From positions 55,862,001-55,926,000 of the forward strand of contig OX597831.1 in the NCBI GenBank assembly GCA_951406725.2: a DNA stretch of 64,000 nucleotides, read 5' to 3'. The stretch comes from Octopus vulgaris. Taxonomy: Eukaryota. Both the position numbers and the translations under genes were made by a program. Position 1 is the stretch's first letter, and each line of letters starts with the position of its first letter. Shown here piece by piece: positions 52,014 to 52,101 of this stretch. A model generated the notes under the pieces. The model searched no databases and was not told the origin of the DNA. It saw nothing but the letters and a program-made list of their open reading frames with translations.

Positions 52014-52101
52014 ACTTCCGACATATGTTTCGAAGATATCACTTGTATTATTCCAAAGGAATAAAATGGTGTAAAACAAAGTATCTTCTCTTCAGGGAAG
52101 T
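52014..52101 (-). ncRNA. type I hammerhead ribozyme candidate, fully canonical
   Basis: ACUUCC-CUGAAGA-GAAGAUA...UAUCUUC-GAAAC-AUAU-GUC^GGAAGU: perfect 6-bp stem I, 7-bp stem II base with G10.1-C11.1, palindromic tetraloop, GUC triplet. Confidence 0.88.

Follow-up and report, generated by a model that had tools for sequence, protein, structure and literature searches.

Does the hammerhead-like motif at positions 52014-52101 of a 64,000-nucleotide stretch of the Octopus vulgaris genome (GCA_951406725.2, contig OX597831.1, positions 55,862,001 to 55,926,000; hereafter the window) represent a genuine ribozyme, from what kind of sequence does it derive, and is this copy likely to cut?

A type I hammerhead on the minus strand

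The minus strand at 52101-52014 carries a type I hammerhead, in which a CUGANGA, GAAA and NUH core surrounds three helices and stem I is open, and cleavage is predicted 3' of C17, between 52020 and 52019. Stem I is formed by ACUUCC (52096-52101) and GGAAGU (52014-52019), which make six Watson-Crick pairs, and the core segment C3-A9 reads CUGAAGA (52089-52095). An extended stem II of 57 nt (52032-52088) follows, which consists of a basal helix, an internal loop, a second helix that is damaged in the window copy, and an apical hairpin UUAUUCC-UUU-GGAAUAA (52048-52064). The remaining segment (52020-52031) contains GAA (52029-52031), the self-complementary 8-mer ACAUAUGU (52021-52028), which provides a stem III of 2 bp with an AUAU loop, and C17 at 52020. 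All hammerhead elements named in the initial annotation are thus present on this strand, and its cut site agrees with the predicted C17. Internal loops are predicted in both stem I and stem II, and no tertiary contact between the two stems was identified.

A descriptor combining the core with stems I and II of six or of four strict pairs gave one match in the window and none in 200 Markov shuffles and, therefore, the window hammerhead is not a chance occurrence. Rfam reported no hammerhead for 51820-52140, even at E 10, and there were zero hammerheads among the 150 of 237 Rfam matches listed in another scan, probably because stem II is long; an Rfam score is, however, not a defining biochemical feature of hammerheads. 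The missing Rfam match, as well as a minimum-energy structure with native flanks that is not the hammerhead, might suggest a chance match or a structure without catalytic history, which is scarcely credible in view of the shuffles, the compensatory changes described below and the location of the motif at the expected place in a Penelope-like repeat.

The motif belongs to a Penelope-like retroelement

The window motif is the hammerhead of a Penelope-like retroelement (PLE) copy that lacks its 5' part and sits in a TA microsatellite, and it lies in the 3' terminal repeat of that copy; the initial annotation called the motif correctly but missed its membership of such an element. The insertion (51816-52139, minus strand, subfamily B) comprises the last 324 nt of the element, namely the pseudo-LTR and tail, and was delimited by the points at which homology to other copies stops and by the presence of the same sequence at both ends of full-length elements. 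It is flanked on each side by (TA)n-rich microsatellite (51698-51813 and 52139-52390), the insertion target, and no further pieces of the same element were found within the 64-kb window.

The 306 nt around the motif are a dispersed repeat in the 2.8-Gb genome, and first-look candidates fall from 3343 for the hammerhead end to 1019 for the nuclease part and 363 for the reverse transcriptase (RT) part, so that the genome carries thousands of 5'-truncated copies plus full-length ones. The copies have a common 3' end followed by (TA)n, a variable 5' truncation and often an inverted partial copy, and longer copies contain, upstream of the motif, a GIY-YIG-type frame and then RT motifs. Full-length elements are organised as repeat-ORF-repeat with a hammerhead in each repeat; hammerheads at both ends were found in 5 of 20 RT-selected loci, one of which has an uninterrupted 775-codon ORF, with the two cuts 2,863 nt apart and the first of them about 255 nt before the start codon. 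The single ORF encodes a telomerase-related RT followed by a C-terminal GIY-YIG nuclease, the latter assigned from alignment motifs. A structural model of the 775-codon product (mean pLDDT 78) matched telomerase RTs best (top five matches, E 4e-9 to 2e-8), while Pfam gave no useful match, including no nuclease match, for the element proteins or seven homologues, and a PDB sequence search returned weak, unrelated matches only. The family ORF is 31-35% identical to eight metagenomic homologues. Pseudo-LTRs, 5' truncation, an inverted 5' copy and a tail at one end, the traits of PLEs with a C-terminal endonuclease, are all present. In contigs of four runs, whose RNA origin is only guessed and from which strand, ends and level are not readable, a full-length young copy was covered in 27-30 of 30 bins. 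At one locus (L081, about 7735-8878, plus strand), a 381-codon host-like frame follows a young element copy at a distance of about 1.5 kb.

The coding capacity also bears on whether the source of the motif could be, in place of an autonomous element, a tandem repeat of the non-coding retrozyme or SINE-like kind. Type I hammerheads with a palindromic loop III are typical of animal retrozymes (PMC7229834), and the octopus motif further resembles the animal non-LTR retrozymes of that source and of bioRxiv 10.64898/2026.07.22.740005 in its short stem III and in the dimer-enhanced cleavage seen in some of them. Those retrozymes are non-coding tandem repeats of 170-400 nt, whereas the octopus motif is the end of a coding element; no tandem unit of this kind occurs in the window, and longer copies carry the PLE ORF upstream. 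A retrozyme origin is, therefore, highly improbable, being largely refuted by the full-length coding copies. The association of hammerheads with PLEs is known, and the novelty is at the family level; no description of the family was found in the published literature, Repbase and Dfam being outside this search.

Clade placement and comparison with known elements

Clade criteria were taken from Craig et al. 2021 (PMC8557442). The Neptune clade, considered first, was dropped on the Hydra criteria. At the place aligned with the RWK-type motif of the Hydra clade, the octopus family has RW with L instead of K as the third residue, and DKT is present; the nuclease is without CCHH and has CxxC and CxH around the conserved E and N, which is the Hydra-clade condition. 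Insertion into (TA)n appears to be preferred, as judged by eye from the flanks. The CxCX5C linker before the nuclease, which all eight homologues possess, is missing from both the family ORF, where an Asn/Ile-rich stretch replaces it, and sister family F. Because of this missing linker, the family is filed, from its sequence, as probably Hydra-related and not as a Hydra-clade member.

Likeness to the Hydra clade (PMC8557442) extends to a single RT-then-GIY-YIG ORF with RW and DKT, no CCHH between GIY and YIG, CxxC/CxH around E and N, (TA)n targets, a length of about 3 kb, and a type I hammerhead after the ORF with a G-C at the base of stem II and a near-palindromic stem III. The differences are that the octopus family lacks the CxCX5C linker while TA targeting is kept, that its stem II region spans 54-59 nt, whereas none of the 26 Hydra rows in File S2 exceeds 26 nt, and that stem III plus loop has 8 nt versus 9-10. 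Identity with Hydra-1_Obim was rejected, since protein start and hammerhead both differ when compared by eye. Two Selaginella entries of File S2 are also long, with about 50 nt of stem II/loop II in PLE-X1_sMoe, and a long stem II thus has precedent outside the Hydra clade, although PLE-X1 belongs to another clade, lacks an endonuclease and is rDNA-targeted.

As in the metazoan PLE hammerheads of Cervera and de la Pena 2014 (PMC4209133), the motif is found in both pseudo-LTRs and mostly in solo truncated copies, with a long helix II base, a palindromic helix III and predicted dimeric action. In contrast to the hammerheads described there, the octopus motif is not minimal, having a 6-bp stem I, a 2-bp stem III with a tetraloop, and a multi-helix stem II.

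Selection on the fold across subfamilies

Diagnostic words divided 174 distinct motif copies among subfamilies A-E and sister family F. Within the motif region, the median identity between pairs of copies is 0.85 in A, 0.905 in B (that of the window), 0.87 in C, and 0.97 in D and E. A tree of 31 copies from upstream sequence is ladder-like, with D and E together forming a tip with 100/100 support. The family stem II follows a common plan of a 6-bp helix, a small internal loop, a 5-bp helix and an apical hairpin, spanning 54-59 nt.

Pairing was assessed on 60 copies (56 distinct); short motifs were used to select them, so that the core, basal stem II and stem III are partly constant by choice. 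Across 19 pairs in the 56 distinct copies from six subfamilies, 94.7% of cells are paired, as against 92.6% in shuffles, none of 500 of which reached the observed value, and 28-49% in slid controls; the shuffle counts overstate significance because the copies are related. Two-sided changes occur in 24 cells of stem I, where C-G becomes U-A in subfamilies D, E and F, and in 3 and 4 cells of the stem II helices, besides several wobble changes, and correspond to about three to four independent events. Still-pairing variants of the apical hairpin, judged by eye and outside the pair count, were seen in A, D and F, and RNAalifold found both stem I and stem II by itself. Core position 7, the free position of the hammerhead core, is U, A or G across subfamilies, while U4 is changed to C in subfamily E. 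Since stems I and II keep pairing through compensatory changes across six subfamilies, the hammerhead fold was under selection in the source elements.

Sister family F (L003:82-368, L231-L250) is very young, with 1988 candidates of which the best are 99-100% identical, and has 64% nuclease identity. It shows the same three-part stem II with compensatory changes, an intact CUGAUGA core and a long distal stem I, and is without the cysteine linker.

The window copy is likely a passive relic

The window copy has 87-91% identity to its 39 best other matches, among the 3343 first-look candidates. Its core, stem I and cut site are intact, and the 7-bp stem II base recorded in the initial annotation (GAAGAUA, 52082-52088, with UAUCUUC, 52032-52038) is indeed present, but it derives from a private one-base deletion and is atypical of the family. 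The exact spelling has one match genome-wide and none among the 74 other subfamily-B copies, which also lack the deletion itself and the two private substitutions that disrupt the second helix. The AUAU loop is found in 4 of the 74 copies within subfamily B, and in 50 of the first 100 matches listed genome-wide, chiefly of subfamily A.

Folding predictions gave the hammerhead a share of 0.036 in the bare motif versus 3e-5 in the 51990-52130 transcript, and the minimum-energy prediction with native flanks is another fold, a competing hairpin about 6 kcal/mol more stable than the hammerhead. The predicted 5' arm of this hairpin (52101-52119, minus strand) would sequester the core and overlaps a possible distal stem I in part. 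The T7 transcription test suggested earlier for 51990-52130 could, therefore, fail for folding reasons. A conserved on/off switch formed by the upstream hairpin was considered and is unsupported, the hairpin being predicted in B, C and D and different in A, E and F. Modelling supports the suggestion that dimers cut by way of the palindromic loop, two bare window motifs being predicted to form a dimeric hammerhead in which both ACAUAUGU 8-mers pair.

The initial annotation regarded this motif as the best candidate for an active ribozyme, a view that is not supported: the copy is solo and decayed, its private deletion and two substitutions disturb a conserved stem II, and younger copies with intact cores are present elsewhere and 350 nt away in the window. 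Being old and solo, with a privately deleted stem II and flanks that favour a competing hairpin, it is a poor candidate for activity and likely a passive relic. Retention as an active ribozyme serving the host, such as at the 3' end of the upstream Ras-family gene, whose last coding exon lies at 49424-49909 on the plus strand (Pfam Ras, E 2e-20), is very improbable. The exon end at 49909 and the intact core, stem I and cut site would fit such a role, given that only 14 of 46 subfamily-B copies, in sets chosen independently of the motif, passed a simple intactness test. That proportion, however, makes about 3 in 10 sibling copies as intact, the motif is antisense to the gene and 2.1 kb beyond its stop, and both the private stem II damage and the more stable competing hairpin argue against it.

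A second type I hammerhead with a long stem II, belonging to family G, is located at 51575-51665 on the plus strand, with CUGAAGA, a palindromic ACAAUUGU and a predicted cut after GUA, and is a better activity candidate than the 52101-52014 motif. The family G repeat is young and unrelated to the Penelope-like element (1351 candidates, best 96-98%); a nuclease-like tblastn match lies upstream in 2 of 14 loci, and a pattern of short ends and long tails occurs likewise. This hammerhead is sense to the Ras-family gene 1.7 kb upstream. Elsewhere in the window, an inverted pair at 55510-55920, representing another hammerhead-like repeat end (CUGAUGA, short stem II, GAAAC), surrounds a tRNA-like SINE head and an (AAT)n run. 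A long inverted repeat at 23614-23700 has words in common with the family G end in an Rfam alignment. Further CUGANGA words in repeat-like contexts (+1820, +5638, +29463, -18460, -28325 and -59413) fail the type I descriptor and may be degenerate or differently wired hammerheads.

A changed core in the youngest branch

The U4C core has at least 506 exact matches versus 426 for the canonical young spelling. U4C copies belong to the youngest clade, with short tips, and include full-length copies and the one with the open ORF; the tree, with three U4C changes and an AU p of 0.34, does not establish their monophyly. Some U4C copies add C17A and a G-U pair at the stem II base. Full-length or long young U4C copies are L089, L092, L093, L095, L098 and L100, most of them with the G-U stem II base, and L098 and L100 combine U4C, C17A and the AUAU loop.

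Because the youngest branch spread with a changed catalytic base, cutting in this family is likely weak or optional, as judged from the copies themselves. The spread of U4C is no proof that cutting is dispensable, since U4C was reported to lower activity in vitro and yet to suffice for a viroid in vivo (PMC3088659).

Insertion ends and the copied template

Of the main copies selected through their ORF sequence, 29 extend to the motif; 17 of these end at about 43-59 nt after the cut, 9 at 198-208 nt and 3 elsewhere. In the window, the short 3' end zone, a putative first reverse-transcription start, corresponds to 51960-51978, and the optional tail of about 150 nt, whose far end, about 205 nt after the cut, is the long 3' end and a putative second start, corresponds to 51816-51965 (both minus strand). 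Inverted two-armed insertions combine one long and one short arm in 34 of 35 cases, and in 16 of 17 where the sets were chosen without regard to the long end; this count leaves out six rows (five RT rows and L176) whose 'long end' is the internal 5' repeat continuing into the ORF. The tail measures about 150 nt in family F and about 140 in family G. The published tail of 30-40 bp is not matched in the octopus family, although the printed value is typical rather than diagnostic; a rotifer example has 31 nt (PMC3846280).

This arrangement resembles that of PAc, a Poseidon element of Anolis (Frangieh et al. 2024, PMC11167929), in which two internal RT starts downstream of the hammerhead likewise define an optional tail, targets are AT-rich and ends show no sign of following the cut. 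It differs in the tail, about 150 nt here as read from genomic ends only versus 30-40 in PAc, and in the RT starts, which lie in the 5' UTR before the start codon in the octopus family and inside the ORF in PAc. The PAc hammerhead was reported in the same source to cut only with protein, and its mutants leave insertion unaffected.

Of 60 copies chosen by downstream sequence, 59 start before the cut, and no start falls within 3 nt of it; as about one in 60 would start at the cut by chance, only a pile-up is excluded. These ends suggest that the copied template was uncut or religated RNA, two states that the end data cannot separate, because reading across the cut site is equally expected of a ligated circle.

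The circular alternative, which was proposed for PLEs in PMC4209133, is that both hammerheads cut the transcript, the 2.86-kb unit is ligated, and RT from two internal starts rounds the circle to give more-than-unit copies, so that cleavage would be essential in source elements. Both RT starts sit just inside the 5' end of the cut-to-cut unit, and a full copy can, therefore, come only from uncut RNA or from a circle. The first nucleotide of full-length copies lies 95-303 nt before the 5' cut, and the core and stems have survived DNA divergence of about 20% and are retained in the sister family, whose nuclease identity is 64%. All of this would accommodate a circle. However, the U4C lineage amplified well, in some copies with C17A and a G-U stem II base as well, linear cut RNA should give some starts at the cut where 0 of 60 were seen, and unprocessed RNA was used for PAc insertion in vitro (PMC11167929). 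Circularisation is thus rather unlikely, and weak, optional cutting is favoured over it.

Proposed role of the hammerhead

The account that we consider fairly probable is that the motif is a genuine hammerhead, that the window copy is a relic, and that cutting is weak, assisted by dimerisation or protein, and unneeded to define the copied unit. With its 2-bp stem III, the ribozyme of source transcripts would be a weak cutter as a monomer, and cutting might improve on binding of the element protein or on pairing of two motifs by their self-complementary 8-mers. Monomer activity is possible, since invertebrate hammerheads described as cutting efficiently typically combine a tetraloop with a 2-bp stem III (PMC7229834). 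Judging from the insertion ends, reverse transcription would have two starts downstream of the cut, at distances of about 50 and 205 nt, and would run through the cut, so that the template is most likely uncut RNA, and cleavage would be a side, probably regulatory, step that does not define the copied unit. The long stem II is a selected structure that probably allows a stem I/stem II contact via internal loops, and possibly serves as a protein-binding arm.

A bolder and less likely proposal holds that what is retained in the hammerhead is mainly a folded scaffold, bound by protein or dimerising, and less its cutting activity; RT starts would be paired, 150 nt apart and on uncut RNA, and TA repeats would be targeted in the absence of the zinc linker. 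It would draw on the apparent conservation of the long three-part stem II and on the core of the youngest amplifying branch, which seems to have been weakened by U4C and then by C17A and a G-U stem base.

Significance

The role of the hammerhead in Penelope-like elements is an open question, as put in bioRxiv 2021.04.23.441226 and PMC11167929. The single window copy is ordinary fossil DNA; the significance lies in its family. Hammerheads with a long stem II are a class missed by Rfam here, and TA targeting occurs in this family without the CxCX5C linker, which is thought to be tied to it. Moreover, the family offers a graded natural series, from the canonical core through N7 variants and U4C to U4C plus C17A, with copy numbers and ages, and this series, together with the very regular long-tailed two-armed insertions, makes the need for cutting, as well as the choice between an uncut and a circular template, directly testable.
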